From Planctomycetota bacterium (GTDB taxonomy: Bacteria; Planctomycetota; SZUA-567), in assembly GCA_031270685.1 (NCBI GenBank), contig JAISXA010000095.1:1-52795 (forward strand): DNA of 52,795 nucleotides, in the 5' to 3' direction. This document shows, piece after piece, positions 30 to 52,587 of this stretch (position 1 is the first letter of the stretch; every line of letters begins with the position of its first letter). The notes beneath the pieces are model-generated. The model ran no database searches and had not been told where the DNA came from. It saw only the letters and a list, made by a program, of their open reading frames with translations. Position numbers and translations under genes: made by a program.

Positions 30-163
30 CTGAAGTTTTGCAAAATGGCGATTAAACCACCAATCGCCATTTTGCAAAAATCTAAAACGCTTGTGCCGCA
101 AGGATCGTGATTTTTACAAATTGGGCATTCGGCGGTTTGAATGCCCAATTTACGAAAGTTCAG
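30..163 (+). mobile_element. hpMITE-A copy (full, 134 bp)
   Basis: TIRs CTGAAGTTTTGCAAA / TTTACGAAAGTTCAG with three internal hairpins. Flanked by a TAAAT duplication (25-29 and 164-168). Lies 53 nt upstream of cysK. Confidence 0.85.
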
Positions 164-2604: not shown

Positions 2605-3428
2605 TGCCCGGCAATTTTCCCCGCGCCGGAAACGGGACGGACGGAGACGGCCTCGGGGAAATCCGGGCGGAAAACGTCGTCAAGGCGTTTCGCCATCATG
2701 ACGGGACGGAGGTCGCCGCTTTGTCGGGGGTCGAGCTGCGGGTGCGGGCGGGAGAATTCGTCTCCCTCATCGGGCCTTCCGGCTGCGGCAAATCGACGCT
2801 TCTCAGATTGATCGCCGGCTTGATTCAACCCAATTCCGGACGGTTGTCCATCGACGGCGCCGAAATCGCCGGCCCCGATTGGGAAAAAGGGCTGGTGTTC
2901 CAGAATCCCCTGCTTTTCCCCTGGATGAACATCCGCGACAACGTCGCCTTCGGGTTGCGGGCGAGAAAGGTGTACCGGGAGCGGAAAAACGAGGTGGAGA
3001 CCTTCCTGAAGCTGGTGGGACTGGAAAAATTCGGCCGCTCCTATCCGCATCAACTGTCCGGCGGCATGGCGCAACGCGCCTCGCTCGCGCGGGCGCTGGT
3101 GAATCGCCCCCGGGTTCTTCTCATGGACGAACCGCTGGGAGCCCTGGACGCCTTCACCCGCATGAACATGCAGGATGAAATCCTCCGCATCTGGCGGGAG
3201 CGGAAGACCACCATGGTCATGGTCACGCACGATGTCGACGAGGCGCTCTATCTTTCGGATCGGGTAGTGGTGATGAGTCCCGGGCCGGGGCGGATAGATA
3301 CGGCGATCTACATCCCTTTTTCCCGCCCCCGGGCGAGGAGCGATCCCGATTTCCTGCATTTGCGCGCGACCATTCTGAAGATTCTCAATTTCGGGGGCCA
3401 GTCGCGGGAACCGAATTATCAGATTTGA
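2598..3428 (+). CDS. ABC transporter ATP-binding protein (SsuB/TauB-like)
   Basis: Walker A GPSGCGKST, signature LSGGMAQR, Walker B LLMDEP. The start ATG at 2598 overlaps the permease stop (ATGGTGA). The 1983 start of the track ORF is an out-of-context extension. Confidence 0.9.
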   Translation: MVMPGNFPRAGNGTDGDGLGEIRAENVVKAFRHHDGTEVAALSGVELRVRAGEFVSLIGPSGCGKSTLLRLIAGLIQPNSGRLSIDGAEIAGPDWEKGLVFQNPLLFPWMNIRDNVAFGLRARKVYRERKNEVETFLKLVGLEKFGRSYPHQLSGGMAQRASLARALVNRPRVLLMDEPLGALDAFTRMNMQDEILRIWRERKTTMVMVTHDVDEALYLSDRVVVMSPGPGRIDTAIYIPFSRPRARSDPDFLHLRATILKILNFGGQSREPNYQI

Positions 3429-4466: not shown

Positions 4467-4666
4467 AAATCGGCTTTTACAGGAAATTGGGCCAACCGCC
4501 GCCCGATTTTCTCCAAAGATGTTACTGCTTACGGGCCAATGGGTTGATTTTTCGTCAGGTCGGGCGATACCGCCGACCTTGCAATAATTCCCGACGTAAA
4601 ATGGAAACCCAAGAAACTTTGGCGAGAATCAAACGGCGGTTTGTTTGCTTTTCTCCAAAAGTCCAC
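4463..4666 (-). mobile_element. hpMITE-B copy (full length, degenerate left end)
   Basis: Hairpin B (GGAAATTGGGC-CAACCGCC-GCCCGATTTTCTCC), the central module and hairpin A, ending in AAAAGTCCAC. The left end contains the stop codon of the SBP gene. Confidence 0.8.
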
Positions 4667-4693: not shown

Positions 4694-4827
4694 CTGAAGT
4701 TTTGCGAAGCGGCGATTAAACCGCCAATCGCCGCTTCGCAAAAAATCAAAACGCATGTGCCGCAAGGATTGTGATTTTTACAAATTGGGCATTCGGCGGT
4801 TTGAATGCCCAATTTGCAAAAGTTCAG
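4694..4827 (+). mobile_element. hpMITE-A copy (full)
   Basis: About 90 % identical to the 30-163 and 22520-22653 copies. Ends 17 nt before the metY ATG. Confidence 0.85.
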
Positions 4828-7513: not shown

Positions 7514-7569
7514 GTGGACTTTTGGAGAGAATCAAACAAACCGCCGTTTGATTTCCCCCAAAAGTCCAC
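7514..7569. mobile_element. hpMITE-B solo hairpin-A unit (56 bp)
   Basis: GTGGACTTTTGGAGAGAATCAAAC-AAACCGCC-GTTTGATTTCCCCCAAAAGTCCAC, flanked by a TTCAA duplication (7509-7513 and 7570-7574). Confidence 0.85.
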
Positions 7570-9566: not shown

Positions 9567-9932
9567 GTGGACTTTTGGTTGCGGCCGAGCAATGCCGTGT
9601 CGCGGGGAAGGAGGAATCCTGTCGCCGGTTTGGGTCGAGTTGACGAAAAATCAACCCATTGGCCTGTAAGCGGACTTTTGGAGGAAATCGGGCCAACCGC
9701 CGCCCGGTTTTCTCCAAAGATGTTACTGTTTACGGATCGACGGGTTGATTTTTCATCAGGTCGGGTGATACCGCCGACCAGGCAATAATTCTCGACGGAA
9801 AATGGAACCCCAGGAAACTTTGGAGAGAATCAAACGGCGGTTTGTTTGATTTTCTCCAAAAGTCAACTGTAAGCAGTAATATCTTAAAAGGAAGTCTGGC
9901 GGCGGTTGGCCCGATTTTCTTTAAAAGTCGAC
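9567..9932 (+). mobile_element. hpMITE-B outer copy carrying a nested insertion
   Basis: It starts with GTGGACTTTTGG and ends with TTTAAAAGTCGAC. Its central module is interrupted at 9672-9867. Confidence 0.8.
9672..9867 (-). mobile_element. hpMITE-B complete copy inserted inside another hpMITE-B
   Basis: Complete inverted element flanked by TGTAAGC on both sides (9665-9671 and 9868-9874). Removing the insert and one repeat restores the consensus ...CCATTGGCCTGTAAGCAGTAA.... Confidence 0.85.
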
Positions 9933-13308: not shown

Positions 13309-13893
13309 TCACGCCCGGTCGGCGTGCTCCAGGGCCAGTTGGATCTCGATCGTGGACAAGCCGGTGGCGGCCGTTATTTCGGCCGCGGTTTTTCCCTCGT
13401 CGCGCAGCGCCACCACCCGCGCCTGCAGATTGGATCTGAACCGCCGCCCGTCGCCCGCTTCCGCCGCCTCCGCGTTTCCGGCCGGCCGCGGCGCCGGCGG
13501 CGCGATCCCGCCGTTTTCGGCGGCGGTCAGGGCTTCGAGCCGGGCGATGCGCCGCTCGGCGTCCCGCATCAGGGCTTCGAGCCGGGCGACAAGCTGCCCG
13601 GCGTCCTTCACCAGGCGGTTGAGCATGCGGATCTTGTTGTCGACCCCGGCGTTTATTTCCCTTCCCGTCTCGATAAGCTCCACCAAGGCTTGGTCGGAGG
13701 CGTCGCGGTAGCGGTCGGGTTCCCGGTCGCGCGCCCGGAATTCCTTGACGTCGAGCGGCGGCGGCTGGCGCGCCTTGCGCCGGCGCGCGATAAGCCCCAG
13801 CACGCCGATGCCCGCCAGCACCAGGGCGAGCCGCCAGTAGCCGCCGGCCGCCGCCGCTTCGGCGACGGGTTCCGCCGCGAGAATTACGCCCAT
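13309..13893 (-). CDS. membrane-anchored coiled-coil protein with C-terminal HTH-like motif (DUF2802-like architecture)
   Basis: N-terminal TM YWRLALVLAGIGVLGLIA, heptad-like RLEAL repeats, and C-terminal VVALRDEGKTAAEITAATGLSTIEIQLAL. The stop lies 2 nt before the next start. Confidence 0.6.
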   Translation of the reverse strand: MGVILAAEPVAEAAAAGGYWRLALVLAGIGVLGLIARRRKARQPPPLDVKEFRARDREPDRYRDASDQALVELIETGREINAGVDNKIRMLNRLVKDAGQLVARLEALMRDAERRIARLEALTAAENGGIAPPAPRPAGNAEAAEAGDGRRFRSNLQARVVALRDEGKTAAEITAATGLSTIEIQLALEHADRA

Positions 13894-17016: not shown

Positions 17017-18000
17017 TTAGTCCACCGCGCGGGTCATGGGATCGAGCAGTCCGAGAATATCGGGATGGTCCATGTTTTCCCTGGTGACGATGGTGACGCC
17101 GGTGTCGACGTAGGCGGGGATGTCCTGTCCCGCCAGTTTCTTCAGTGCGCTGTCGACGCCGTAGTAGCCCATGCCGTAGGGATCCTGCAGCACCAGCGCC
17201 TTGAGCGCGCCGTCCCGCACCGCCTGGATTTCCTCGGGGTCGGAGTCGAAGGCGATGCCGATGAGCTTGTCCGACAGGTTGAGTTCGGCGATGGCGCGCG
17301 CGACGCCGTCGCCGGTGTGGTTATTGTCGGCGAAAAAGCCGAGCAGGTCGGGGTTGGCGGTGTACATGTCGATCGCGTTGTTGAGGGCGCGGACGATGTC
17401 GTTGTCGCAAAAGCGCGGGCCGAGCAGCTGGATGCCCGGCGCGTACTTCTTGACGCCGTTGACGAAACCGTCGTCGCGGTCGGTAAGCACCTGAACGCCG
17501 GCCATCGCGCTGATGATCCCGACCTTGCCGCTGGGCTGAACGCCCTTGGCCTTGAGAAGGTCGACGAAGGTCTTGGCCGCCAGCTCGCCGGCGGCGAGGT
17601 TGTTGGTCGCCAGGAGCGAATCGACGCGGTCGGTGTTCACCCGGTTGTCGATGGTGACGACCACGATGCCCTGCTCCTTCGCGTCCTCGAGCGCGGGCAC
17701 TGTGGCGTCGGAACTGGTCGAGGAGATGACGATCGCGTCCGGCTTGGTGGAAATCACGTCCTCGAGAATGGTGACCTGGCGGTCGATGTCGGCCTCGGAG
17801 CGGGGGCCGTAGGTGGTGATGGACACCTTGTCGGGGAATTCCTTCGCGTAGTTGCGGGCGCCGACGAGAACGTATTGCCAGAAATCGGAATCCGTCGCCT
17901 TGATGATGACCGCGACGTCGGCGGGGTCGGCCGCCGCGCGCGCTTCCGACGCGCACAGGCCGAAGGCCGCCAACAACAGCGCTGCGATGATTCTCTTCAT
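17017..18000 (-). CDS. periplasmic sugar-binding protein (RbsB/PBP1 family), orphan
   Basis: Signal peptide MKRIIAALLLAAFGLCASEARA and a PBP type-1 pattern (VAVIIKATDSDFWQ, VVVTIDN, GFFADNNHTGDG). No adjacent permease or ATPase. Confidence 0.85.
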   Translation of the reverse strand: MKRIIAALLLAAFGLCASEARAAADPADVAVIIKATDSDFWQYVLVGARNYAKEFPDKVSITTYGPRSEADIDRQVTILEDVISTKPDAIVISSTSSDATVPALEDAKEQGIVVVTIDNRVNTDRVDSLLATNNLAAGELAAKTFVDLLKAKGVQPSGKVGIISAMAGVQVLTDRDDGFVNGVKKYAPGIQLLGPRFCDNDIVRALNNAIDMYTANPDLLGFFADNNHTGDGVARAIAELNLSDKLIGIAFDSDPEEIQAVRDGALKALVLQDPYGMGYYGVDSALKKLAGQDIPAYVDTGVTIVTRENMDHPDILGLLDPMTRAVD

Positions 18001-18186
18001 GGTGTTTCCTCCCTGTCCACAAAAGAAGCTCCCATAAGGGCCGCGCAAGATTCTAACTGGAAGCCAGCGCGGTTTGAAGGCTGCGGAACCGGTTCCACAG
18101 CAACGCCAACAACAACTGCATACAACCGCCGGCCACAAAAAAAAACCGGGGATTGCGGAGAACCGCAACTGCATTTTCCCTCGGAA

Positions 18187-18323
18187 CCGAAGCTTGGCAA
18201 AACGGCGCTTGCACCGCCGCTCGCCGCTGTGCAAAAAAAACGAAGTATGCGCCGCAAGGGTTGTGGTTTTCACCGATTGTGCCTTCGGCGTTTTGAAGGC
18301 CCAATCGGTGAATATCCGGTCAG
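18187..18323 (+). mobile_element. hpMITE-A copy (diverged, stems kept by compensatory changes)
   Basis: Same three-hairpin architecture. Hairpin 3 reads CACCGATTGTGCCTTC-GGCGTTTT-GAAGGCCCAATCGGTG against the consensus CAAATTGGGCATTC-GGCGGTTT-GAATGCCCAATTTG. Confidence 0.7.
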
Positions 18324-18832
18324 AACTCGACAATTCTCGGTTCGCCGGTTCCCGAGAACGAATGAAATCGCGCCGTCGCATCCTTGAGGTACAAAACCTG
18401 GGTGTTGCCGTCGTCCGCGGAATACATGCTCTTCAACTCCGGGTGCGCGTCCAGCAGAAACTGTTTCGCCTCCCTCCTCGGATCGTCGACGGCGACGGCC
18501 TGAACGCGGATCCAGGCGCCTTTGCCGTCGAAGGCGCAAATCTCGATCTTGGGATTGGCGGCCATTTGCTTCGAGACATTCTTGATTTTCCCGGTCTGGA
18601 AATAGAGTCTGCCCTCGAAAATCGCGAGACTCCCAAACGGGCGGACCCTCGGCTGGTCGCCTTCCGCGGTTGCGAGATAGTAGGCGCCGCAGCCTTTCAG
18701 GAAAGCGTAAACTTCCCTCAGCCCGGCGTTTTCATCTCCGGCGTTTACGTTCGCGGCATAAGACGCGCCGCGGGTTCCCGCGAACAACAACGCCAGGGAC
18801 AACGACAAGGCGAGCGCGAATCCCTTTCCCAT
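18320..18832 (-). CDS. pyridoxamine 5'-phosphate oxidase-like (FMN-binding split-barrel) protein with signal peptide
   Basis: GAYYLATAEGDQPRVRPFGS...GRLYFQTGKIKNVSKQMAANPKIEICAF is typical of the PNPOx-like family. N-terminal MGKGFALALSLSLALLFAG looks like a secretion signal. Confidence 0.7.
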   Translation of the reverse strand: MGKGFALALSLSLALLFAGTRGASYAANVNAGDENAGLREVYAFLKGCGAYYLATAEGDQPRVRPFGSLAIFEGRLYFQTGKIKNVSKQMAANPKIEICAFDGKGAWIRVQAVAVDDPRREAKQFLLDAHPELKSMYSADDGNTQVLYLKDATARFHSFSGTGEPRIVEF

Positions 18833-18846
18833 GTTCGATCTCCATT

Positions 18847-19044
18847 GTCAACTTTTGGAGGAAATCGGGCCAACCGTCGCCCGATTTCCTCCAAAGATGT
18901 TACTGCTTACGGGCCAATGAGTTGATTTTTCGTCAGGTCGGGCGATATCGCCGACCTTGCAATAATTCCCGACGGAAAACGGAACCCCAGAAAACTTTGA
19001 AGAGAAACAAACGGCGGTTTGTTTGATTCTCTCCAAAAGTCCAC
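18847..19044 (-). mobile_element. hpMITE-B copy (full)
   Basis: Runs GTCAACTTTTGGAGG ... CTCCAAAAGTCCAC. Perfect TCCATT duplication at 18841-18846 and 19045-19050. Confidence 0.85.
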
Positions 19045-19071
19045 TCCATTGAAAGCCGCCCCGCGGCGGGT

Positions 19072-19851
19072 TCAACCGGCGGCCTGCTCGGGGGGGCGGC
19101 GTTTTTTCCCGTCGTCCCGATCGCGTTTGCCGTCCTTGTCCTTCCACTTCTTGTCGCGAACAAGGCGTCTGCTGTCGCTATTGACGTTTACCCGGTTTTT
19201 ATCAAACGGCTGTTTGTCCTTTTCGGCCGGTTTCTTGTCCTTGGCGGCGTCGTGCTTGACCTCCCCGGAATCCTGGGCCTTGTCCTTGCCGTCCTTGATC
19301 TTTCCGTCATCCGTCTTTTGGGCCGCGTCGTCATCCTGCTCCGCCTGCTTATCCTTCTTGCTCTTGTGTTTTTGTTCAAGCTCGAGTTCGATGTGGTGGC
19401 CGTCCGCGCGGTCCGACGTTTCCTCCAGGTTTTCGCGCCACGCGCCGCGCCTGCGGCGTTGCTCCCGCCGCTCGCGCTCCTGGGCCGCGAGGGTGGCGAG
19501 GATTCGCTCCGCGTCGTCGTGGCGGAGGGAATCGCGGTCGAGCGCGAGGAGAAGCGTCGAGCAGGCCGCCCACGGCGCGGCACGCGGAGCGAAAGACGAG
19601 GCGGCGGATTGGCGGCGGCCGGTTGCGCGTTCGGCAAGCGCTTCGAAATAGCGGTCGGGATCGACGGCGTGCACGGGCAGGCTTATCGGTCCGGATGGCA
19701 GCGCGCTGTCGATGACCGCGCCAGTCCGCCGGAAACCGGCGAAGAGGGAATCGGCGTCCCGCGTAAAGTAATTGGACGAAAAAGCATTCGGAAGCCACAG
19801 CGCCATCGCCGCGGCAATGACTGGCCAGGTACGCGATCCGGGCATCCGCAT
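19072..19851 (-). CDS. secreted hypothetical protein with K/D/E/R-rich low-complexity C-terminal half
   Basis: Signal-like N-terminus VIAAAMALWLPNAFS. The C-terminal 120 aa are dominated by KDK/DDG/RRR runs. Confidence 0.5.
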   Translation of the reverse strand: MRMPGSRTWPVIAAAMALWLPNAFSSNYFTRDADSLFAGFRRTGAVIDSALPSGPISLPVHAVDPDRYFEALAERATGRRQSAASSFAPRAAPWAACSTLLLALDRDSLRHDDAERILATLAAQERERREQRRRRGAWRENLEETSDRADGHHIELELEQKHKSKKDKQAEQDDDAAQKTDDGKIKDGKDKAQDSGEVKHDAAKDKKPAEKDKQPFDKNRVNVNSDSRRLVRDKKWKDKDGKRDRDDGKKRRPPEQAAG

Positions 19852-19896
19852 TCTCCAACTTCATCGCGCGCGACGCAAGCGCTTGGCATGCCGGGA

Positions 19897-19952
19897 GTGG
19901 ACATTGGAAGGAAACCGGACGGCGGTTGACCCGATTTTCTTTGAAAGTCCAC
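19897..19952. mobile_element. hpMITE-B solo hairpin-B unit (56 bp)
   Basis: GTGGACATTGGAAGGAAACCGGAC-GGCGGTTG-ACCCGATTTTCTTTGAAAGTCCAC, flanked by a CGGGA duplication (19892-19896 and 19953-19957). Confidence 0.8.
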
Positions 19953-20006
19953 CGGGAGAAACCGATTATATTCGCCGGCGGGAAATTGTCAAGGCAAAAA
20001 CCGCCG

Positions 20007-21338
20007 TCAAGCCTTGACCACGCGCGCGCGGACCGCGTCCACGTCGGCCATGGCGTTTCTGGCGTCGACGATCAGGCGGGCGGATTCGCCGAGCAGGCGG
20101 TAATCCACCCCGCTGTGGGCGGCGGCCACCACCACGGCGTCGTATTCGGCGAGGGCGGCCGGTTTCAAGGAGACCGATTTCAGCTCCTTGCCGTCCGGGC
20201 CCCGGCCGGGGAGGCGGGGAACGTGCGGATCGTGGTACTCCGTCCGCGCGCCGTATTTTATGAACAGGTCGAACAGCCTCAGGCCGGCGCTTTCGCGGAC
20301 ATCGTCGATGTCCTTCTTGTAGGCGACGCCAAGAACGAGGATGCGGCTTCCGTTGAGGCTTTTCCGTTCGCGGTTAAGTTCCTCGGCGGTGCGCTTCAAC
20401 ACGTATTCCGGCATCGCCGCGTTGATCTCGCCCGCCAGCTCGATGAACCGGGTGGGCTGGCCGTATTCGCGCGCCTTCCAGGCGAGGTAATACGGATCGA
20501 CGGGGATGCAGTGTCCGCCGGGTCCCGGCCCCGGATAAAACGGCATGTAGCCGAAAGGCTTCGACGCGGCGGCGGCGACAACCTCCCAGATGTCGATGCC
20601 CATGCCGGCGAACACGGCCTTCAATTCGTTGACCAGCCCGATGTTGACGGAGCGGAAAATGTTTTCCATCAGCTTCGCCGCCTCGGCGGCCTCGGGCGAG
20701 GATACCGGCACCACCTTGGGGACGATGAACCCGTACAGCCGGCCGGCCAGTTCCAGGCAGCGGGGAGTGATCCCTCCCACCACCTTGGGGACGTTCGCGG
20801 CGCCATGGCCGGCGCGGCCGGGATCCTCGCGCTCCGGGGAATAAACCAGGAAGACGTCCCGCCCGACCTTGAGGCCGGTACGCACGATGAACGGCAGGAC
20901 CACTTCGCGGGTGGTGCCGGGATAGGTCGTGGATTCGAGGGCGACCAGTTGCCCGGGCCGCAAATTGGAGGCGACTGCCACGGACGCCTCGATTACGTGG
21001 CTGATGTCGGGTTCGCGTTGGGGCGTGAGCGGGGTCGGGACGGCGAGGATGATCGCGTCGGCGAGGGCCAGGTCCCGCATGTCGGCGCATCCCCGCCCGC
21101 CGGCGTCCTTGACCGCGCGGACATCGGCGGCCGGAATGTGCCGGATATAGCGCCTGCCCGCGTTGATGGCGGAGATTTTCCGCCGGTCGCGGTCGAAGCA
21201 CAACGTCTTGAATCCCGCCTTCGAGAAGGACGCGGCGAGCGGCAGGCCGACGTAGCCCATGCCGACGATGCCCACCACCGCTTCCCTGGACGCTATTTTC
21301 CGCGCCAATTCGTCGGCGCAGTTCCGGCTTTGTGACAT
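20007..21338 (-). CDS. nucleotide-sugar dehydrogenase (UDP-GlcNAc/UDP-ManNAc 6-dehydrogenase family)
   Basis: N-terminal Rossmann motif VGIVGMGYVGLPLA, the catalytic Cys region GGHCIPVDP, and a length of 443 aa. Confidence 0.9.
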   Translation of the reverse strand: MSQSRNCADELARKIASREAVVGIVGMGYVGLPLAASFSKAGFKTLCFDRDRRKISAINAGRRYIRHIPAADVRAVKDAGGRGCADMRDLALADAIILAVPTPLTPQREPDISHVIEASVAVASNLRPGQLVALESTTYPGTTREVVLPFIVRTGLKVGRDVFLVYSPEREDPGRAGHGAANVPKVVGGITPRCLELAGRLYGFIVPKVVPVSSPEAAEAAKLMENIFRSVNIGLVNELKAVFAGMGIDIWEVVAAAASKPFGYMPFYPGPGPGGHCIPVDPYYLAWKAREYGQPTRFIELAGEINAAMPEYVLKRTAEELNRERKSLNGSRILVLGVAYKKDIDDVRESAGLRLFDLFIKYGARTEYHDPHVPRLPGRGPDGKELKSVSLKPAALAEYDAVVVAAAHSGVDYRLLGESARLIVDARNAMADVDAVRARVVKA

Positions 21339-21470
21339 GATGCCGCCGCCCTCCCCAAGCGCTTTCCGTGACCGCGATGCCCCGCATGATACGCGTTTCG
21401 GCCCGGAAAGGCAACGCTGGTCAATGGCGGCATTCCTCCACGAATGCGGCCATGCTCATGGCCTTCATGC

Positions 21471-22499
21471 TCATGGCCTTGCGAGCAGATCCAGGGCCGC
21501 CCGCGTCACCCGGTCGACGCCGAGCGCCAGCATGGCGGCCTGGTCGAGGCGGCGCCGCTCGCGCGTGGATCCGGGCAAGGCGAGACGTTCGTGCACGACC
21601 GCGCCGCGCGGACCGTACGGTCCGAGGCGGGCGGGGTCGGTGACGCCGAACAGGCCGAGCGTCCGGCAGCCGACGCCGGCGGCGGCGTGCATGGGAAACG
21701 AATCGCAGCCGACGAACAGGCGTGCCCGCCGCGCCAGTTCCGCCACGCCGGGGATCGACAGGTCGGGCGCGGGGAAGAGATCGCCGGACGCGCCGGCGGC
21801 GAGGCGTTCGACCGCGCCGCGCTCTTCCGGGCCGTGGCCGAGGACCAGGCTCGGCCAGCCGGTTTTTTCGCGCAACAGGGCGGCGAGCCGGCCGAACCGC
21901 GCCAGTGGCCAGCGTTTGGCGGCGAAACTGCCCCAGGGGCCGAGAAGGATGAAGCCGTCCCCGCCGGCGCGCGCCGCGACGAAAGCGTCGATAGCCTGTT
22001 TCTCCCGGTCCGGGCAGGGAGGGAAAACGAACTCCGCCGCGCCGGGATCCGCTTCGCCGATACCGACCAGAAGCGACCGCACCTTGTCGACGACATGCGT
22101 TCCCGTGGGCCGCACCAGCCGGTTGTCGAGCCAGGGCGCGAGCTCGCGGCCCTCGCCCCTTTCGAATCCGATCCGCGTCCGCGCCCCGGAAAGGCGGGCG
22201 GCTATGGCGCTCTTGGCCAGGCCCTGAACGTCGAAGGCGATGTCGAAGCGTTCGGCCGCGAGCGCCCGGCGCGCCGCCAATACGGCGGAAAGCGATTTCA
22301 GCCAACCCCGGGGAAGGATGTGGCGCCAGTCCACAAGGGGATTGCCGACAATGAGCGGAGCGGACGGCGCTTCCGCGATCCAGCCGAGACGGCAGCCGGG
22401 ATGCAGCCTTTTCAGCGCGGCCGCCAGCGGCAGCGCGTGAATTGTGTCGCCGATGGACGAAAGCCTGACGATGAGGAAACGCTCAGTGTTTTGGCCCAT
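21471..22499 (-). CDS. glycosyltransferase family 9 (ADP-heptose:LPS heptosyltransferase)
   Basis: RFLIVRLSSIGDTIHALPLAAALK N-terminus and C-terminal GCDSFPMHAAAGVG, typical of WaaC/WaaF. Confidence 0.85.
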   Translation of the reverse strand: MGQNTERFLIVRLSSIGDTIHALPLAAALKRLHPGCRLGWIAEAPSAPLIVGNPLVDWRHILPRGWLKSLSAVLAARRALAAERFDIAFDVQGLAKSAIAARLSGARTRIGFERGEGRELAPWLDNRLVRPTGTHVVDKVRSLLVGIGEADPGAAEFVFPPCPDREKQAIDAFVAARAGGDGFILLGPWGSFAAKRWPLARFGRLAALLREKTGWPSLVLGHGPEERGAVERLAAGASGDLFPAPDLSIPGVAELARRARLFVGCDSFPMHAAAGVGCRTLGLFGVTDPARLGPYGPRGAVVHERLALPGSTRERRRLDQAAMLALGVDRVTRAALDLLARP

Positions 22500-22519
22500 A
22501 TCCCCTTTTCAGTGTATAG

Positions 22520-22653
22520 CTGAAGTTTTGCAAAGCGGCGATTAAACCGCCAATCGCCGCTTTGCAAAAATCAAAACCGCTTGTGCCGCGAGGATCGTGA
22601 TTTTTACAAATTGGGCATTCGGCGGTTTGAATGTCCAATTTGCAAAACTCCAG
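22520..22653 (+). mobile_element. hpMITE-A copy (full, reference copy)
   Basis: CTGAAGTTTTGCAAAGCGGCGATT-AAACCGCC-AATCGCCGCTTTGCAAAA ... CAAATTGGGCATTC-GGCGGTTT-GAATGTCCAATTTGCAAAACTCCAG. Sits between the der stop and the GT9 gene start. Confidence 0.85.
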
Positions 22654-24009
22654 TTATGCGTATCTTCCCACTTCTTTTTCCGAGCTGGTCTTGAACAGCA
22701 GCCGAAGCGGGATTTCGGGATAGTCCAGGCCGAAACGGAGCCGGCCCGCCAGGTAGCGCTGGTAATTGCCGTCGAACTGCGAGGGATTGTTGACGAAAAG
22801 GAGGAAGGTCGGCGGAGAAACCCCGACCTGGGTCGCGTAGTAGATTTTCCCGAGCTTTCCGCCTTTGGCGCGGGGAGCCCTCTTCTTCAGGGCCGCTTCC
22901 ACCGCCGCGTTGACTGCGGCGGTGGAGGTCTTCCGCGCGCCCTGTGCGACCAGTTCGAGGACGGATTCGACCACCTGCCAGGCGTTGTCGCCCTCCTTCG
23001 CGGAAAGAGCCGCCAGACGCGCGAACGAAAGGCCGGGAAGCCGGTCGCCGACGTATTTGGCGAACGCGTCCAGGGCGAGGCCCGGGCTTTTCCCGGTCAC
23101 GAGATCCCATTTGTTCAAGGCGATCAGGCAGGGCTTGTAGTTTTCGAGGATAAACGCGCCGATCCGCTGGTCGACCTTGCCGATCTCCCCGGTCGCGTCG
23201 AGCATCAGCGCCACGGCGTCGGCGCGGCGCACGGCGCGCTCGGTGCGCATCTGGCCGAAGAATTCCAGCGCATCATCCATCCGGCCGCGTTTGCGCAGAC
23301 CAGCGGTGTCGATAAGCGTGAAGGCGAGACCGTCACGGCGGACGGCTATGTCCAGCGAATCGCGGGTGGTGCCGGGGGCGTCGGAGACGATGACGCGTTC
23401 CATGCCGGCGATCCGGTTGACGAAGGTCGATTTGCCGACATTGCGGCGGCCGACGACGGCGATCTTCGGGAGGGCGCGGACATCGCCCTCCGCCGCGCTC
23501 CCGGCGTCCTCCGCCGGCAGGAGTTCGAGGATGGCCTGCTCCAGATCGGCGAGGCCTCGATTCTGCTTGGCGCTGACCGGCAACGCGTCGCCGAAGCCGA
23601 GGGCGTGGAAGCTGGGCAACGCGTCCTCGATGCGCTGGGTGTCGACTTTCGCGGCGACGAGCAGCGCCTTCCTGCCGGAGCGGCGCAGCTTGTCCGCCAC
23701 CTCCCGATCAAGGGGGGTGATGCCGTCGCGGCTGTCGACGAGGAAAACGAGGACGTCGGCCGCGCCGATGGCGAGATCGATCTGGCGCTCCACCAGCTTT
23801 TCCAGCTTTTGGCTGTCCACGACGCCGATGCCGCCGGTGTCGACGAGGTCGAAGATCCGGTCCCCGACGGCGAGCGGGTAGAGCACGCGGTCGCGGGTGG
23901 CGCCCGGCGTATCGGCCTCGATCGCGATCCGCGATCCGGCGAGGGCGTTGAACAGCGTCGATTTGCCCACGTTCGGGCGGCCGACTATGGCGACTGAGGA
24001 ATGGGGCAC
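22654..24009 (-). CDS. der: ribosome-associated GTPase Der (EngA), double GTPase domain
   Basis: Two G domains (GRPNVGKSTLFN and GRRNVGKSTFVN) plus a KH-like C-terminus. Start proposed at GTG 24009 (VPHSSVAIVGRPNVGKS). The track ORF extends to 24144 and would overlap the upstream gene. Confidence 0.9.
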   Translation of the reverse strand: MPHSSVAIVGRPNVGKSTLFNALAGSRIAIEADTPGATRDRVLYPLAVGDRIFDLVDTGGIGVVDSQKLEKLVERQIDLAIGAADVLVFLVDSRDGITPLDREVADKLRRSGRKALLVAAKVDTQRIEDALPSFHALGFGDALPVSAKQNRGLADLEQAILELLPAEDAGSAAEGDVRALPKIAVVGRRNVGKSTFVNRIAGMERVIVSDAPGTTRDSLDIAVRRDGLAFTLIDTAGLRKRGRMDDALEFFGQMRTERAVRRADAVALMLDATGEIGKVDQRIGAFILENYKPCLIALNKWDLVTGKSPGLALDAFAKYVGDRLPGLSFARLAALSAKEGDNAWQVVESVLELVAQGARKTSTAAVNAAVEAALKKRAPRAKGGKLGKIYYATQVGVSPPTFLLFVNNPSQFDGNYQRYLAGRLRFGLDYPEIPLRLLFKTSSEKEVGRYA

Positions 24010-26754: not shown

Positions 26755-26854
26755 CCGAAGTTTTGCGAAAATCAAAAACGCTTATGCCGCAAGGATCGTG
26801 ATTTTTACAAATTGGGCATTCGGCGGTTTGAACGCCCAATTTGCAAAAGTCCAG
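26755..26854 (+). mobile_element. hpMITE-A copy lacking hairpin 1
   Basis: There is a precise deletion between the two TTTGCAAA arms of hairpin 1. Flanks are TCACGA / TCATGA (5 of 6 identical). Confidence 0.8.
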
Positions 26855-27935: not shown

Positions 27936-28133
27936 GTGGACTTTTGGAGAAAATCAAACAAACCGCCGTTTGATTCTCTTCAAAGTTTCTTGGGGTTCCA
28001 TTTTACGTCGGGAATTATTGCCTGGTCAGCGGTATCGCCCGACCTGGCGAAGAATCAACCCATTGGCCCGTAAGCAGTAACATCTTTAAAGGAAATCGGG
28101 CGGCGGTTGGCCCGATTTACTTTAAAAGTCGAC
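27936..28133 (+). mobile_element. hpMITE-B copy (full, reference copy)
   Basis: GTGGACTTTTGGAGAAAATCAAAC-AAACCGCC-GTTTGATTCTCTTCAAAG, then the central module, then CTTTAAAGGAAATCGGGC-GGCGGTTG-GCCCGATTTACTTTAAAAGTCGAC. Confidence 0.85.
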
Positions 28134-30708: not shown

Positions 30709-30842
30709 CTGAAAGTTTTGCAAAATGGCGATTAAACCGCCAATCGCCACTTTGCAAAAATCAAAAACGCCGGTGCCGCAAGGATCGTGATTTTTACAAA
30801 TTGGGCATTCGGCGTTTTGAATGTCCAATTTGCAAAACTTCG
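30709..30842 (+). mobile_element. hpMITE-A copy (full), abutting an hpMITE-B fragment
   Basis: Full three-hairpin element, immediately followed by an hpMITE-B end fragment at 30843-30873. Confidence 0.85.
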
Positions 30843-30873
30843 TTTGATTTCCTTATTTTCTTTAAAAGTCCAT
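30843..30873. repeat. hpMITE-B end fragment
   Basis: GTTTGATTTCCTTATTTTCTTTAAAAGTCCA directly abuts hpMITE-A. Confidence 0.55.
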
Positions 30874-31472: not shown

Positions 31473-31630
31473 GTGGACTTTTGGAGAAAATCAAATAAAC
31501 CGCTGTTTGATTCTCTCCAAAGTTTCCCAGAGTTCCATTTTCCGTCGAGAATTATTACCTGGTCGGCGGTATCACGTGGACTTTAAAGGAAATCGGGCCA
31601 ACCGCCGCCCGATTTCCTTTAAAAGTCGAC
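31473..31630 (+). mobile_element. hpMITE-B composite (left part plus a complete solo hairpin-B unit at 31576-31630)
   Basis: Hairpin A with a mutated loop (AAACCGCT), a truncated central module, then GTGGACTTTAAAGGAAATCGGGC-CAACCGCC-GCCCGATTTCCTTTAAAAGTCGAC. Confidence 0.8.
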
Positions 31631-31892
31631 GCACATTCTTCTGAATAATAAGCGAAGGGGAGTCCCGTAGAAGGCCACAGATAAGGGTGAATCCGACATC
31701 CTTACCCTTCATGGCGGCTTCCCCCAATGCGTGAAGACAGGCTTTTCGACTTTTCGTTCAACCCTGCCGTGAAGCTTCGCGCCGAGACTCCGCGCGTTGG
31801 GTAGCGACGCAAAATAACATTGGCAATGACCACTGGTTGGGCGCTGGCAATACTTTGTCCCGACGCTCCCCGATATAAACGTTATTTCGTGT

Positions 31893-32493
31893 CTACTCCT
31901 TACCGCCGACGCCGGTGTCCTGCTCATCCGCGAGGCCGATCATCGCTTGGGTCTGACCGAGACGCTTGCCGACCGACTCCATGACCACCGTGATCAGCGC
32001 CTCGTCCGCTAACCCCTGGCCGAACTTCTTCGCGAAAGACTCTACGCCTTCGCCTTGGGGTTTTCCCGGCAGGACGGCGCCGACCGGCTCGCCCACGACC
32101 CCGCCTTCAGGACCGCCGTCTGGGACCGGCCAGGGTGTGAAGCGGCGGACGAGCGCCTCGCCTCGCAACCCACATCGTCGCGGCTCGTCTCCCTCCTGGC
32201 CGGCTGGCACAACGCGAGGAACTCCGCCAGTTCCTCCACCAACCCGTTCTCCGCCTGCGGGAGAGGAACAGCCGGGCGTCGCGCTCCTATTATGCCAAGG
32301 TGCATGATGACGGCGACCGAGCGCGTCTGGAGTGGAGCTTCGACGCGGATCGCGCCGGGTGCTTCGGGAGTTGTCCACGATCCAATTGGTAGACGTGATT
32401 TTCCCGACCAGCGCCGGGGTCGAACTCAAACGGAGTTGCGTCACCGTGCCCACTCCGCACCAACAGATACTGTTTCAGCGTCAGAAGTTGTAA
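31893..32493 (+). pseudogene. decayed IS1380-like (IS4 superfamily) transposase relic
   Basis: LLIREADHRLGLTETLADRL...R*PLAELLRERLYAFALGF..GADRLAHDPAFRTAV...LASQPTSSRL follows the conserved N-terminal pattern of IS1380-type transposases. It carries an in-frame TAA at 32010-32012. A transposase C-terminus-like piece (IQLVDVIFPTSAGVELKRSCVT) sits in another frame, and the DDE core is missing. Confidence 0.55.
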
Positions 32494-32783
32494 TTGCCCA
32501 CTCAGTGGGCAAGATGCAATGTGAAGCCAAGTTTGTAGTGAAGGCTTTCAAGGACCGATCCTTGTAAATCAACAACTTACAAAAAAACTGCGGAACTTGG
32601 GGTAGCGGCTGTTTGCGGCCTTCGCTTGCCTCCCAAATGACGATACCGTCCACCGGCCGTGGTTCCCTGATCTTTTGGATTCCCCGCATCGGGTTAAGGT
32701 GTTTCGGCATATGGCCGGAATTGCGCAGCCACTTGCCCCCGAAGGTGGAAACTGGATGAACCGGGGACGCAATTACGGCGGCG

Positions 32784-34386: not shown

Positions 34387-34493
34387 CTGAACTATTGCCA
34401 ATTGGTAAAAATCACAACCCTCGCGGCACAGTCGTTTTCGTTTTTTTGCAAAGTGGCGATTGGCGGTTTAATCGCCATTTCGCAAAACTTCAG
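34387..34493 (-). mobile_element. hpMITE-A copy with collapsed hairpin 3
   Basis: The hairpin-3 tip is deleted, leaving CCAATTGG. Perfect TTCCGT duplication at 34381-34386 and 34494-34499. Confidence 0.85.
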
Positions 34494-34498
34494 TTCCG

Positions 34499-35490: not shown

Positions 35491-35604
35491 CATTCAATTT
35501 TTCGAGATAGATATTTTTTTCCCTAAACCTGTTGCGCGCACCGCTCCGCCCGCTATAATGCGGGGCAGACCTGCCATTGGCCGGCGTGGATCCTTATTGA
35601 ATTA

Positions 35605-35729
35605 TCACCAATTGGGCATTCAAACCGCCGAATGCCCAATTGGTGATAATTGCAACCCTTTCGCGCAGGCGGTTTTGATTTTTGCAAAGCGGCTATTGGC
35701 GGTTTAATCGCCGCTTTGCAAAACTTCCG
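35605..35729 (-). mobile_element. hpMITE-A copy (diverged)
   Basis: Inverted orientation. Hairpin 3 reads TCACCAATTGGGCATTC-AAACCGCC-GAATGCCCAATTGGTGA. Ends 42 nt upstream of serC. Confidence 0.75.
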
Positions 35730-35771
35730 TGTCCTTGCTCTTATTGTAGCGATTTTCCGGAAAGGAACAAC

Positions 35772-40912: not shown

Positions 40913-40984
40913 CTGAAGTTTTGCGAATTGGGCATTCAAACTGCGGTTTGTTTGATTTTCTCCAAAAGTCAACTCAAAGTCCAC
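40913..40984. mobile_element. hpMITE-A / hpMITE-B chimera
   Basis: The A-type TIR and one hairpin-3 arm (CTGAAGTTTTGCGAATTGGGCATTCAAAC) are joined within the loop motif (TGCGGTTT) to a B-type hairpin-A arm and TIR (GTTTGATTTTCTCCAAAAGTCAAC). Confidence 0.7.
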
Positions 40985-40995
40985 CGTAAGGATAT

Positions 40996-41619
40996 TCAGC
41001 CTGCGCCGTTCGCCCTCGCGCCCGGCGGGGGATAGAGGTGCTTGCCGGTATGGCGATAGCGTTCCGCCTCCGAAAAGACGCATCCGCAATACTGTTGGCG
41101 GTATATTCCCTTGAGTTCGCTTTCCGCCGGCCTGGCGCGGCTAAAATCGGCGGTCAGAAATTCCAGGTCGAACCTGTCCGCGACTTCCCTGCCGGCATCG
41201 AGAATCAGCTCCCGGCTTTGTTCCCGGCTGGCGAGAAGAGTCGTTGTAAACGCTTCCCGGCCGCGCGCCTTGAACCTTTCGGCCGCCCGCGACAGCCGGA
41301 GAAGATAACAGCGGCGGCAGCGGTCACGGCGGTTTCTTGGCAAACCGCCATCCGCAACCATGGCCGCCAGCCAGGATTCCAGGCCGTATTCGTCATCAAT
41401 TTCCGATTCGAGGCGATTCCTTTCAAGATAAATCCGCAACGCCTTGACCCGGCGGCGAAACTCGATAAGGGGATGAATGTTGGGATTGAAGAAAAACAGT
41501 TCCCCCGGAGCGGGGATTCCCTCTCCCGCCCGCAGCGTCTCCAAGGTTCCAGAGAGGCAGGGGGCGCAACACACGTGCAAACCGATGTTCCCGGTCGACG
41601 GGGAAATGGACGGATTCAT
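40996..41619 (-). CDS. queH: epoxyqueuosine reductase QueH (DUF208)
   Basis: LHVCCAPC N-terminal cluster, CRRCY, and C-terminal YRQQYCGC. Confidence 0.85.
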   Translation of the reverse strand: MNPSISPSTGNIGLHVCCAPCLSGTLETLRAGEGIPAPGELFFFNPNIHPLIEFRRRVKALRIYLERNRLESEIDDEYGLESWLAAMVADGGLPRNRRDRCRRCYLLRLSRAAERFKARGREAFTTTLLASREQSRELILDAGREVADRFDLEFLTADFSRARPAESELKGIYRQQYCGCVFSEAERYRHTGKHLYPPPGARANGAG

Positions 41620-42097: not shown

Positions 42098-42177
42098 AGA
42101 ATTATTGCAAGGTCGGCGGGATCGCCCGACCTTACGAAAATCAACCCATTGGTCCGTAAGCGGTGGCATCTTTGGAG
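42098..42177 (+). repeat. hpMITE-B central module only (both end hairpins missing)
   Basis: AGAATTATTGCAAGGTCGGCGGGATCGCCCGACCTTACGAAAATCAACCCATTGGTCCGTAAGCGGTGGCATCTTTGGAG aligns to the centre of the 27936-28133 copy. Confidence 0.7.
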
Positions 42178-42544: not shown

Positions 42545-42898
42545 TTAACCGGCCGGATAATTCTCGATCTCGACCTTGTCCTTCTCCTGGTAGGGCGCGA
42601 GCGTCGCCACCATCTTCACCGGCTTGCCGGAGACGTTCCTGAGGTAGTGTTTTTCATCCGGCTCGATGTGGATGAAATCGCCCTTCTTCAAGGGATGGAC
42701 GACGCCGTCGACAATGATCTCGACCTCGCCCTCCAGGACGAAGAAGTTTTCCTCCATCACCTTGTGGTAGTGGGCCTTGAAATCCTGCCCCGCCTGGAAT
42801 TGCACCACCGCGAAATTCATCCGCGGGCCGACCATAAGGTATTTCGGGCCGTTGTCGCCGTTGCGGTACTCGCGCTCGCTCTCGTTCAGAATGAACAT
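42545..42898 (-). CDS. cupin-domain protein (paralog 2)
   Basis: Cupin motifs AHYHKVMEE (HxH...E) and GDFIHIEPDEKHYLRN. About 60 % identical by eye to the upstream paralog. Confidence 0.8.
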   Translation of the reverse strand: MFILNESEREYRNGDNGPKYLMVGPRMNFAVVQFQAGQDFKAHYHKVMEENFFVLEGEVEIIVDGVVHPLKKGDFIHIEPDEKHYLRNVSGKPVKMVATLAPYQEKDKVEIENYPAG

Positions 42899-42934
42899 GC
42901 CTTCCTCCGTTCCCGCGCCGTCCAGTCAATCCGT

Positions 42935-43285
42935 TCAGCATATATGATCGTCGACTTCCACCTTGTCCTTGTCGGCGTACGGCGCGAGGGCGGAAATCAT
43001 CTTCACCGCGCCGTCGTACAGATTCCTGACGTAATGGACTTCGCCCGGCTCGATGTGGATGTAGTCGCCCGCCGAGAGGGTATGCACTTTTCCGTCCACG
43101 GCGATATCCACCTTGCCCTCGATGATGAAGAAGTTTTCCTCCATGACCTTGTGGTAGTGCGCCTTGAAATCCTGGCGCGGCTGGAACTGCACCAGCGCGA
43201 AATTCGAACGCGGACCGGTCATCAGGTATTTCGGACCGCTGTCGTCGAAGCGATAAGCGCGGTCGTTTTCATTCAGGACAAACAT
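42935..43285 (-). CDS. cupin-domain protein (paralog 1)
   Basis: MFVLNENDRAYRF..., AHYHKVMEE, and GDYIHIEPGEVHYVRN. Start taken at ATG 43285 by alignment with the paralog. The track start at 43390 would overlap lsrK. Confidence 0.8.
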   Translation of the reverse strand: MFVLNENDRAYRFDDSGPKYLMTGPRSNFALVQFQPRQDFKAHYHKVMEENFFIIEGKVDIAVDGKVHTLSAGDYIHIEPGEVHYVRNLYDGAVKMISALAPYADKDKVEVDDHIC

Positions 43286-43341
43286 GGCTGGTCCTCCACC
43301 GATGAATCGTCGAACAGGAACTGCGCCAGGCTTCGGCCCGA

Positions 43342-52252: not shown

Positions 52253-52298
52253 GTGGTCTTTTGGAGGAAATCGGGCCAACCGCCGCCCGATTTCCTCT
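52253..52298. mobile_element. hpMITE-B hairpin-B unit (right TIR missing) inside the ISL3 relic
   Basis: GTGGTCTTTTGGAGGAAATCGGGC-CAACCGCC-GCCCGATTTCCTC. Confidence 0.7.
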
Positions 52299-52299
52299 T

Positions 52300-52587
52300 C
52301 ATGGGCGCCGCGAACCTCACTTCCGCCTGGCGCTTGGCGCCGCAGGAACGGCAGCGCAATCGCGGCACCGACAGCACCGCGTACACCAAGTGCAGTCCAA
52401 TGGGTGGGAGACGGAAGGTACGCTCATATGCTCCATCCCTTACCGCCTCCGTCGACCCATATACCGAACACCGGGGGCGGCGGTCCTCAATATGGAAGTA
52501 AACTTTGGAGTCCTTGTAAATCGTCTTCACATACCCATAGTCGCGAAGACCAAAGGTCCGATTCAAAAGCGTGCTGGACATATTCAT
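52300..52587 (-). pseudogene. ISL3-family transposase N-terminal (zf-ISL3) relic
   Basis: RPRCSVYGS...RTFRLPPIGLHLVYAVLSVPRLRCRSCGAKRQAEVRF matches the zinc-finger/HTH N-terminus of ISL3 transposases. One Cys position reads Tyr. Homology stops where an hpMITE-B hairpin unit begins, so the tail of the 150-aa track ORF is repeat-encoded. Confidence 0.55.

Follow-up and report, generated by a model that had tools for sequence, protein, structure and literature searches.

A conserved eight-nucleotide loop at the hairpin tips of MITE-like transposons in Planctomycetota as a candidate recognition signal

Contig JAISXA010000095.1 of a Planctomycetota bacterium, analysed here over its whole length of 52,795 nucleotides (the window), contains many short repeats whose hairpins end in one and the same 8-nt loop, MAACCGCC. 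A sequence-only reading had drawn attention to this loop, and to a diverged repeat copy at positions 18187-18323 in which both arms of a stem seemed to have changed in a paired way. I analysed these repeats computationally in the window and in related sequences. It was found that the elements are non-autonomous transposons resembling MITEs (small transposable elements with inverted repeats) and that they integrate by staggered cuts. The core of the loop, ACCGCC, is conserved on arms that differ between families, and the arms keep pairing. It is proposed, tentatively, that the hairpin tip is a handle for the machinery that moves the elements.

The loop motif and the hairpins that carry it

Direct-repeat analysis of the window gave two composite families, called A and B, and several solo units. 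The terminal hairpins are named hairpins 1 and 3 in family A and hairpins A and B in family B. The four hairpins quoted in the sequence-only reading are present as written (4695-4748, 4774-4823, 27943-27984, and 28082-28129), and its claim that all hairpin types have the same 8-nt loop was confirmed. The motif MAACCGCC has 35 matches in the window, while dinucleotide-preserving shuffles of the 52.8-kb sequence gave 8.73 +/- 2.76 matches with a maximum of 15. The exact centre of a long inverted repeat is the site of 22 of the 35 matches, and the other 13 are about what is expected by chance. A scan of the window for 8-nt loops closed by 12 or more pairs gave 20 hairpins, and the motif or a one-base variant of it is present in 19 of these. 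In an independent inverted-repeat search, all long pairs of the repeat families had exactly 8 nt between their arms. There is also an inverted pair, GGCGGTTT-N6-AAACCGCC, at 41328-41349 in the coding region of queH, in which the motif forms the stem and not the loop, possibly by chance.

Is the loop equally constant in other genomes? A gapped pattern scan with one genome per species returned at least 67 loci, of which 66 of 67 come from four metagenome-assembled genomes (MAGs) of Planctomycetota. The remaining locus (L029), the only one of the 67 from a genome outside the Planctomycetota, pairs in the outer stem only and was discarded as a chance match. Only the repeats match between the window and the four MAGs, at about 85% identity, so that none of these MAGs can be the origin of the window. 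The public genomes nearest to this lineage are GCA_031548865.1 and the sister MAGs JAVBRG, JAVBRW, and JAVBTZ. A profile built from the A copies of the window gave 181 nhmmer matches in 512 kb; copies within one genome share descent, and such copy counts are not counts of independent events. Besides the window, four further genomes of Planctomycetota and two metagenomes have hairpins with this loop, and comparisons between sources were made over six sources. Searches of viral contigs and of a plasmid collection for relatives of the elements gave none.

By three measures free of conditioning on the loop, the loop is better conserved than the stems. A structure-only search outside the selection made by the scan pattern collected 98 long hairpins with an 8-nt spacer. 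The spacer is exactly AAACCGCC in 66 of them and within one mismatch of the motif in 22 more (88 of 98 in total), while about ten are unrelated palindromes. Spacers of other lengths were essentially absent after artefact removal; what looked like a group with 6-nt spacers had arisen from permitting one mismatch beside the loop. Metagenomes were scanned with part of the hairpin fixed and the loop left free. The first scan, with solo B units, had no match, and the second, in which the arms of hairpin 1 were fixed, gave 27 loci. The loops at these loci are AAACCGCC (nine loci), ACACCGCC (five), GAACCGCC (five), CAACCGCC (two), GAACAGCC (two), and four variants found once each. Loop bases 1-2 vary (AA, AC, GA, CA, AG, TC), and bases 3-8 are an intact ACCGCC in 23 of the 27 hairpin 1 copies. 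Hairpin 3 of family A, on which no search had been conditioned, has a mean column identity of 97% in the loop, 89% in the inner arms, and 82% in the middle region of the element. Its consensus loop is identical in all six sources, and its arms differ by paired changes (TTGGGC/GCCCAA, CTGGGC/GCCCAG, and ATCGCC/GGTGAT, the last with one position unpaired).

The pairing of the stems was assessed in an alignment of 76 distinct hairpin units. Between hairpin 1 and hairpin 3, MAFFT introduced a one-base gap that is matched in the two arms. Each of the 21 stem pairs has changes on both of its sides. Paired cells make up 92%, a percentage biased upward because the units had been found by palindromy, against 73.9% in shuffles and 32-48% when the partners were slid. 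The covariation score is 0.487 against 0.156 in the shuffles, none of 500 shuffles reached the observed value, and these shuffles preserve column composition and ignore the kinship of the sequences. The two arms of a solo unit are also its two transposon ends and have to match for reasons other than folding. The return arms of composite elements are not termini, and their changes are more telling evidence of pairing. In the MAG RW, such arms have CTGGGC/GCCCAG, CCGGGC/GCCCGG, and CTGGAC/GTCCAG, each with a normal internal continuation. The earlier inference of selection on hairpin structure plus loop identity is upheld, at least in the sense of which copies propagate, by 21 of 21 pairs changed on both sides and by the kept ACCGCC.

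The motif is also found in further families. Family D is a foldback of about 135-150 nt in L079, L086, and L095, with a relative in L046. Its arms (GGGGnnATGnnCTAnnGTTCCC) are unrelated to those of A and B, its copies differ by paired changes, and its loops are GAACCGCC, GAACTGCC, and AAACCACC. The copies are as follows.

L079, ~921-1085: family D, long foldback with arms of ~65 nt and the loop core at the centre
L086, ~1730-1880: family D, as above
L095, 1760-1854: family D, as above

Family E was found in L040. Its left hairpin is GCTAGATTTGCGG-AAACCGCC-CCGCAAATCTAGC, and its right hairpin, read inward, has the loop AACCACTT, while a related fragment in L017 has AACCGCAT. L041 has a single-copy hairpin with the same loop followed by T7, and its arms and termini are unrelated to those of A and B. 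Whatever the arm length of a family, from about 13 to about 65 nt, the motif is exactly at the centre of the palindrome. In 616 kb, ACCGCC is presented on 14 distinct 7-nt inner arms, while the next unrelated 6-mers are on two or three. The common denominator is the position at the tip of a hairpin with an 8-nt loop, not the terminal sequence. Recent common descent of the loop, the alternative raised together with the original claim, does not account for its presence in six sources on different stems, nor for the D and E arms without similarity to A and B. On the other hand, the statement that the stems are unrelated to one another was too strong. It is true of the D and E arms, while the arms of A and B have homologous termini in their outermost 11-12 nt (cTGGACTTTTGc and gTGGACTTTTGg, or cTGrAsTTTTGc and gTsrACTTTTrr) and differ only in the inner 12-13 nt.

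The diverged copy at 18187-18323 has the following features.

18187..18323, +: diverged element A copy; left terminus CCGAAG, right terminus GGTCAG; no target duplication recognisable
18211..18218, +: loop remnant of a decayed hairpin 1, GCACCGCC, read directly, ACCGCC core intact
18265..18316, +: hairpin 3 of this copy, 19 of 22 positions paired, subfamily outer stem CACCGATTG

Its nhmmer score is 81, against about 175 for the other A copies. The paired changes reported for its hairpin 3 are indeed present (CCTTC/GAAGG and CACCGATTG/CAATCGGTG). A second CACCrATTG outer stem is found at 35597-35654, and the MAG locus L010 has a related variant; thus, the paired changes mark a subfamily and were not made in place. 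Moreover, only about 9 of 15 stem positions of hairpin 1 still pair, and the hairpin 3 loop at 18287-18294 is GGCGTTTT (AAAACGCC on the minus strand), one mismatch from the motif. This copy is an old subfamily member. The minus-strand stop codon TGA (18322-18320) of a gene for a PNPOx-like protein (18320-18832) lies inside the last four bases of the copy, which abuts the 3' end of this gene and may have reshaped it. The closest relative of the flanking gene (78% amino-acid identity) is in the MAG QR in a different neighbourhood, and no orthologous context was recovered for this copy.

Architecture, mobility, and surroundings of the elements

Family A is 134 bp long, with the terminal inverted repeats CTGrAsTTTTGCAAA ... 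TTTGCAAAAsTyCAG, and family B is about 198 bp long, with GTsrACTTTTrr ... yyAAAAGTysAC. The solo units are complete palindromes of 56 bp (24 + 8 + 24 nt) with termini on both sides and their own target duplications. There are about 27 hairpin units in the 52.8 kb, or roughly one per 2 kb. The elements are 56-198 bp, non-coding, and all located between open reading frames (ORFs) of high third-position G+C. The copies in the window are listed below.

30..163, +: element A of 134 bp with hairpins 1 and 3; loop of hairpin 1, AAACCACC
4694..4827, +: element A, 134 bp; hairpin 1 at 4695-4748, hairpin 3 at 4774-4823; three-hairpin fold z = -7.3
22520..22653, +: element A, 134 bp
26755..26854, +: element A, hairpin 1 side truncated, hairpin 3 intact
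30709..30843, +: element A; hairpin 3 loop GGCGTTTT
34394..34495, -: partial element A, hairpin 1 (34444-34487) and middle region
35595..35730, -: element A of the CACCAATTG subfamily; hairpin 3 at 35597-35654, hairpin 1 at 35678-35725
4469..4666, -: element B, ~198 bp; hairpin B at 4481-4512, hairpin A at 4618-4659
9670..9867, -: element B nested in another B (9621-9669 and 9868-9932); TGTAA(GC) duplicated at both junctions
18847..19044, -: element B; flanking direct repeat TCCATT
27936..28133, +: element B; hairpin A at 27943-27984, hairpin B at 28082-28129
31473..31630, +: shortened B; hairpin A (loop AAACCGCT), partial interior, complete hairpin B unit at 31575-31630
7514..7569, +: solo 56-bp unit of hairpin A type (24 + 8 + 24 nt); flanking direct repeat TTCAA
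19897..19952, -: solo 56-bp unit of hairpin B type; minus-strand loop CAACCGCC; flanking direct repeat CGGGA
52255..52301, +: hairpin B unit, right arm truncated or diverged
40913..40975, +: chimera; left, A hairpin 3 arm with A-type terminus; AAACTGCGGTTT; right, B hairpin A arm with B-type terminus; junction in the loops

In both A and B, the target duplication marks the terminus, and the loop starts 24-25 nt from it. Followed inward from either end, the loop always reads NNACCGCC, and this polarity is kept in all 78 of 78 unique aligned A elements. Each full composite element has its two loops on opposite strands, as had been noted earlier; the two-fold pseudo-symmetry seen in this is simply the inverted-repeat symmetry of transposon ends. 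The inner arms of the composites resemble decayed termini, and two solo units may have joined to give a composite. In the opposite direction, deletions between TTTTGCAAAA palindromes, of which each A element has four, may give rise to solo A units. When folded as single-stranded DNA, a full A element forms three hairpins closed by the termini (z about -7.3 on either strand), and a solo unit has z values from -7 to -9.

Modules have been shuffled between families, as seen in a chimera in L026 and in the one at 40913-40975 of the window. The junction of the latter, AAACTGCGGTTT, can be read as two overlapping loop motifs of opposite polarity or as a deletion at the microhomology CAAAC. A fragment of the B interior without either terminal hairpin lies at 42099-42173 (85-89% identity). 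In L004 at ~3100-3125, two B-type termini stand back to back without arm or loop; they form a minimal palindrome, GTTGACTTTTTGAAAAGTCGAC, that adjoins an A element. Upstream of the solo hairpin at 19897-19952 there is a perfect match to a sigma-70-type promoter on the minus strand (19992-19965, TTGACA-16-TATAAT, 12 of 12), from which transcription would cross the hairpin into the gene at 19851-19072.

The mobility of the elements is evident from their flanks. Exact direct repeats flank 35 of 47 unique full-length A copies and are 6 bp (14 copies), 7 bp (18), or 8 bp (3) in length. The 7-bp repeats have an AT-rich target consensus, roughly TTAwTAA. Solo and B units have direct repeats of 5-6 bp (TTCAA and CGGGA for solo units, TCCATT for one B). 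In the nested B at 9621-9932, TGTAA(GC) is doubled at the junctions and single in intact B copies, which provides a natural comparison of a filled with an empty site. At orthologous sites, an A element is present in L004 while only a remnant is in L051, another is present in L031 with none in L027, and element E of L040 is absent at the site in L003; in these comparisons the orthologous flanks are too diverged for a clean empty site. In one MAG, individual hairpin units are present in 26-32 identical copies, a sign of a recent burst. Integration by staggered cuts would be typical of DDE transposases. The earlier suggestion of a REP-associated tyrosine transposase (RAYT) or another Y1-like enzyme is contradicted by the terminal inverted repeats and the 5-7 bp duplications, which are lacking in REP/RAYT (REP, repetitive extragenic palindrome) and IS200/IS605 elements.

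In the MAG JAVBRG, a third small repeat with CTAGAGCGGTTCTAA arms and an AT-rich centre was found (L009 180-265, L010 6106-6150, L012 3892-4012, L014 5146, and L058 2578), into which A elements were repeatedly inserted. The idea that CTAGAGCGGTTCTAA is the end of a longer element was rejected; it belongs to this separate repeat, which attracts insertions. A bias of A and B toward a replication or transcription strand was also considered. All six full or near-full A copies before 31 kb have one orientation, and the cumulative GC skew of the window has a maximum near 28-29 kb and falls thereafter. The orientation switches between 19 and 28 kb for B and between 31 and 34 kb for A, and these points do not coincide. 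The bias was dropped, as B flips before A and adjacent A copies, within one locus or the window, are co-oriented in 8 of 12 cases only. Solo units stand in sense to the flanking gene in 7 cases and in antisense in 10.

Which protein moves the elements? Fifty ORFs of the window were compared with Pfam. They are housekeeping genes or unassigned and include ABC transporters, Der GTPase, DsbD, UDP-glucose dehydrogenase, KsgA, and QueH; no transposase, Y1_Tnp, Rep family protein, or recombinase/integrase was found among them. Paired termini 0.4-4 kb apart and multi-copy ORFs were sought across the loci, and no transposase was found. The related sequence consists of MAGs and short metagenome contigs, from which repeated genes such as those of transposases get lost. 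Because MAGs often lose copies of insertion sequences (ISs), the absence of an autonomous IS is weak evidence. The earlier statement that the window encodes no transposase is correct for these 50 scanned ORFs, while a degraded gene of an IS1380-family transposase lies at ~31640-32560 (+) (NF033539, E = 1e-19 for a conceptual fragment of 118 aa) with stops and frameshifts. Its left end abuts the terminus of the hairpin at 31578-31627. All 116 of its database homologues are short (79-206 aa) and mostly from Planctomycetota and Pirellulales. This pseudogene was rejected as the partner, because its homologues in L068 and L069 show a different IS end, unlike the hairpin termini, and because it is absent from all MAG loci. 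Two other features of the window concern genes away from these repeats. Tandem genes of cupin-domain proteins at 42545-42898 and 42935-43390 (together 42545-43390, minus strand) are 76% identical over 300 nt, the result of a local gene duplication, and an ORF at 13309-13893 without a Pfam match contains two tandem 42-nt copies (13527-13610, 83% identity).

What may read the hairpin tip

I favour, tentatively, an explanation in which the hairpin tip is a cis-acting handle that some trans-acting part of the machinery moving the elements reads once the hairpin or cruciform is extruded. It is meant to account for what was observed above, the conserved hexamer on different or unrelated arms, its restriction to palindrome centres, its fixed polarity in the composites, the kept pairing, and the mobility with target duplications. 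The families form a superfamily of non-autonomous MITE-like transposons built on a common module, a palindrome with arms of about 24 nt around the fixed asymmetric 8-nt centre NNACCGCC. Alone, this module is the 56-bp unit, and it also provides both terminal modules of the composites A (134 bp) and B (~198 bp). Integration by staggered cuts leaves the 5-7 bp duplications. Upon extrusion of the module as a hairpin in single-stranded DNA or as a cruciform, the ACCGCC centre would become the tip. A trans-acting protein, either a transposase domain or an accessory factor, might then read the tip, transposition would depend on this reading, and the stem would need only to pair.

Several points weigh against this explanation. 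The window, 459 kb of MAG loci, and 104 kb of metagenome loci yielded neither a cognate transposase nor another candidate reader. Part of the high pairing comes from the selection of units by palindromy, as stated above, and template-switch correction in quasi-palindromes could yield paired changes without selection. The actively copied masters tolerate one or two stem mismatches. A G+C-rich centre makes the extrusion of a cruciform kinetically unfavourable. Families with unrelated termini and with duplications of unequal length (6-7 bp for A, 5-6 bp for B) may use different transposases, which would favour a shared host factor over a transposase. The mismatches of the masters were also inspected for a functional strand. 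Each is a G-T on one strand and an A-C on the other, so they provide no evidence for a single functional strand. Likewise, an asymmetry of G-T wobbles as evidence for an RNA strand was uninformative, as each master has one G-T and one A-C on either strand.

The strongest rival, which I regard as a real though lesser possibility, is such a host factor. A chromosomally encoded protein of this Planctomycetota clade, for example a nucleoid-associated, hairpin-binding, or RNA-binding one, would bind hairpins with the NNACCGCC loop, and several unrelated MITE families would have acquired the tip independently, or exchanged it as a module, for persistence or tolerance. Possible benefits are protection of the palindrome from hairpin nucleases, the architecture of a transposition complex, and mRNA stabilisation. 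The same loop is found on families that differ in duplication length and have unrelated termini (A/B, D, E), which fits this view, as do the single-copy hairpin with T7 in L041 and the shuffling of modules seen in the chimeras of L026 and 40913-40975. A further point in its favour is a degenerate hairpin 1 unit (loop GGAGCGCC) at L009 1293-1355, flanked within one operon by the genes of a sugar-binding protein and of an ABC ATPase, the classical position of REP elements in enterobacterial transporter operons. However, the solo hairpins have no orientation bias (7 sense, 10 antisense), which argues against a strand-specific RNA role, and the elements are not kept at orthologous sites between species. 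Moreover, the family hairpins in 17800-23000 are not called terminator-like, and no candidate protein was identified in the sequence reached.

A bolder form of the favoured explanation is that a clade-wide trans-acting reader, protein or RNA, defines transposon ends by structure and the 6-nt tip code ACCGCC and not by the sequence of the terminal repeats. This seems unlikely. If it were true, any palindrome with suitable arms and an ACCGCC tip could be mobilised, which would explain why unrelated arms share the loop. It would mean attC-like structure logic in duplication-making transposition, a combination not described so far.

Could ACCGCC be an ordinary duplex site? It would then be the subterminal binding block, at nt 27-32, of a bipartite transposon end, and the palindromy would be historical and without function. 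The solo units would be two inverted ends, and a composite would be the product of two joined solo units. DDE transposons commonly have bipartite ends. The distance of 24-25 nt from terminus to loop, the fixed inward polarity in 78 of 78 unique A elements, the homology of A and B termini, and the complete termini and own duplications of the solo units all agree with this. Nevertheless, I consider it improbable, since in several subfamilies the return arms, which are not terminal, keep pairing by paired changes, the motif invariably occupies the exact centre of palindromes with arms of about 13 to about 65 nt, and it is not enriched as a linear site elsewhere.

The two loops on opposite strands in A, B, and E could in principle join the ends of a composite by a kissing interaction (ACCGCC/GGCGGT, 6 bp), or a trans-acting RNA could pair with the tips. 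A G+C-rich core of 6 nt with two free bases resembles known kissing-loop geometry. Such pairing would allow each family to drift in its own way, yet one sequence is found in all families. In addition, solo units and family D have a single tip per strand, and the variable bases 1-2 do not co-vary between the loops of one element. Pairing between the loops or with a trans-acting RNA is thus quite improbable.

Nicking in or beside the loop by an HUH or Y1 enzyme (RAYT, IS200/IS605-like TnpA, or a Rep-like nickase) is very unlikely. A conserved loop on variable stems is the logic of the origins of circular Rep-encoding single-stranded (CRESS) DNA viruses and rolling-circle plasmids, and in single-stranded DNA the hairpins have a strong fold (z from -7 to -9). 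On the other hand, terminal inverted repeats and 5-7 bp duplications are present here, while Y1 and HUH elements make no duplications. The hairpins lack the GTAG/CGTC tag of REP elements, and their stems are 2-3 times longer than REP stems (PMC3733652). None of the 50 scanned ORFs of the window matches Y1_Tnp or a Rep family, and the orientation of the loop never flips relative to the termini. Least credible of all are lox/FRT-like target sites of a tyrosine recombinase, although inverted arms with an exact 8-bp asymmetric spacer fit and strand exchange requires spacer identity across sites, because the arms, the would-be recombinase sites, vary while the spacer is constant, the target duplications and terminal inverted repeats show transposition, no integrase is among the scanned ORFs of the window, and the 12-nt junction AAACTGCGGTTT of the chimera at 40913-40975 is not the product of a conservative exchange.

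Comparison with known systems

The elements have the tested hallmarks of MITEs: they have inverted repeats and duplications, they are small, non-coding, multi-copy, and intergenic, and they differ in occupancy between genomes, while a cognate autonomous IS was not found in the window or in the MAG and metagenome loci. Like the bacterial MITEs (Correia/NEMIS of Neisseria, RUP, and ERIC; PMC3184786), they are 56-200 bp in size, with terminal inverted repeats, short duplications, nesting, occupancy differences between species, and rod or cloverleaf folds. They differ from these in that each end is a hairpin of 20-24 bp with a fixed 8-nt loop, that the loop core is common to families with different or unrelated arms, that the solo unit, with its 56 bp, is small for a MITE, and that no parent IS is known. 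The literature searches gave no account of such elements in Planctomycetota.

REP elements and the composites BIME and REPIN are likewise abundant extragenic palindromes, often in inverted pairs and with complementary stem changes. REP stems are 6-13 bp with loops of 2-5 nt and a GTAG/CGTC tag at the foot of the stem, and there is no target duplication (PMC3733652, PMC3116915, PMC2817692). Here, in contrast, the tag is in the loop, the stems are 20-24 bp, duplications are present, and GTAG/CGTC is absent. Elements derived from IS200/IS605 have subterminal hairpins without inverted repeats or duplications, while both features are present here. The hairpins do not resemble intrinsic terminators either; no family hairpin in 17800-23000 was called terminator-like, and only the unrelated hairpin of L041 has a T7 tail. 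No Rfam family matched at its gathering score in the whole window, where only noise-level matches to miRNA hairpins were obtained (E up to 1).

Integron attC sites are similar in that recognition would be by fold, with little conservation of the stem sequence and many unrelated substrates for one enzyme. What is conserved in attC are extrahelical bases and, at the base of the stem, the boxes R''(RYYYAAC)/R'(GTTRRRY), and the loop varies. In the elements described here, it is the loop that is conserved, the element termini are at the stem base, and duplications are left behind; there is no integrase in the window and no cassette array. Rolling-circle and CRESS-DNA origins, as well as the tip (RBE') of the inverted terminal repeat of adeno-associated virus, also have a conserved loop on lineage-variable stems whose tip is read by a protein. 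Those are single HUH-nicked origins, whereas the present elements are dispersed repeats with inverted repeats and duplications, no Rep gene was found, and the loop does not flip its orientation. The loxP and FRT sites have inverted arms around an asymmetric spacer of exactly 8 bp. Their arms, to which the recombinase binds, are conserved, whereas here the arms vary, the spacer is conserved, and the elements transpose. Transposons of the Tn552/IS21 type, with multi-site ends and short duplications of variable length, may provide a lead. The duplications are 6-7 bp for Tn552 and 4-8 bp for the IS21 family. A 6-7 bp duplication that varies within a family, with TG/CA one base in from the termini, is common to these transposons and the present elements, while no gene for a transposase or an ATPase helper was found and the ends are dissimilar.

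The unusual feature is a tip code common to unrelated stems in elements that make duplications. Even on an ordinary reading, these elements are a previously undescribed and recently active superfamily of MITEs with very small mobile units of 56 bp. If the tip is truly read, transposon ends would be recognized with a free stem sequence, and a hexamer presented by a hairpin would serve as the address. This would provide a handle for finding the responsible protein, for annotating much of the intergenic DNA of an uncultured Planctomycetota lineage, and for designing structure-addressed DNA tools. It would also link DDE-like, duplication-making elements with the structure-reading recombinases of single-stranded DNA, which have been treated separately so far.

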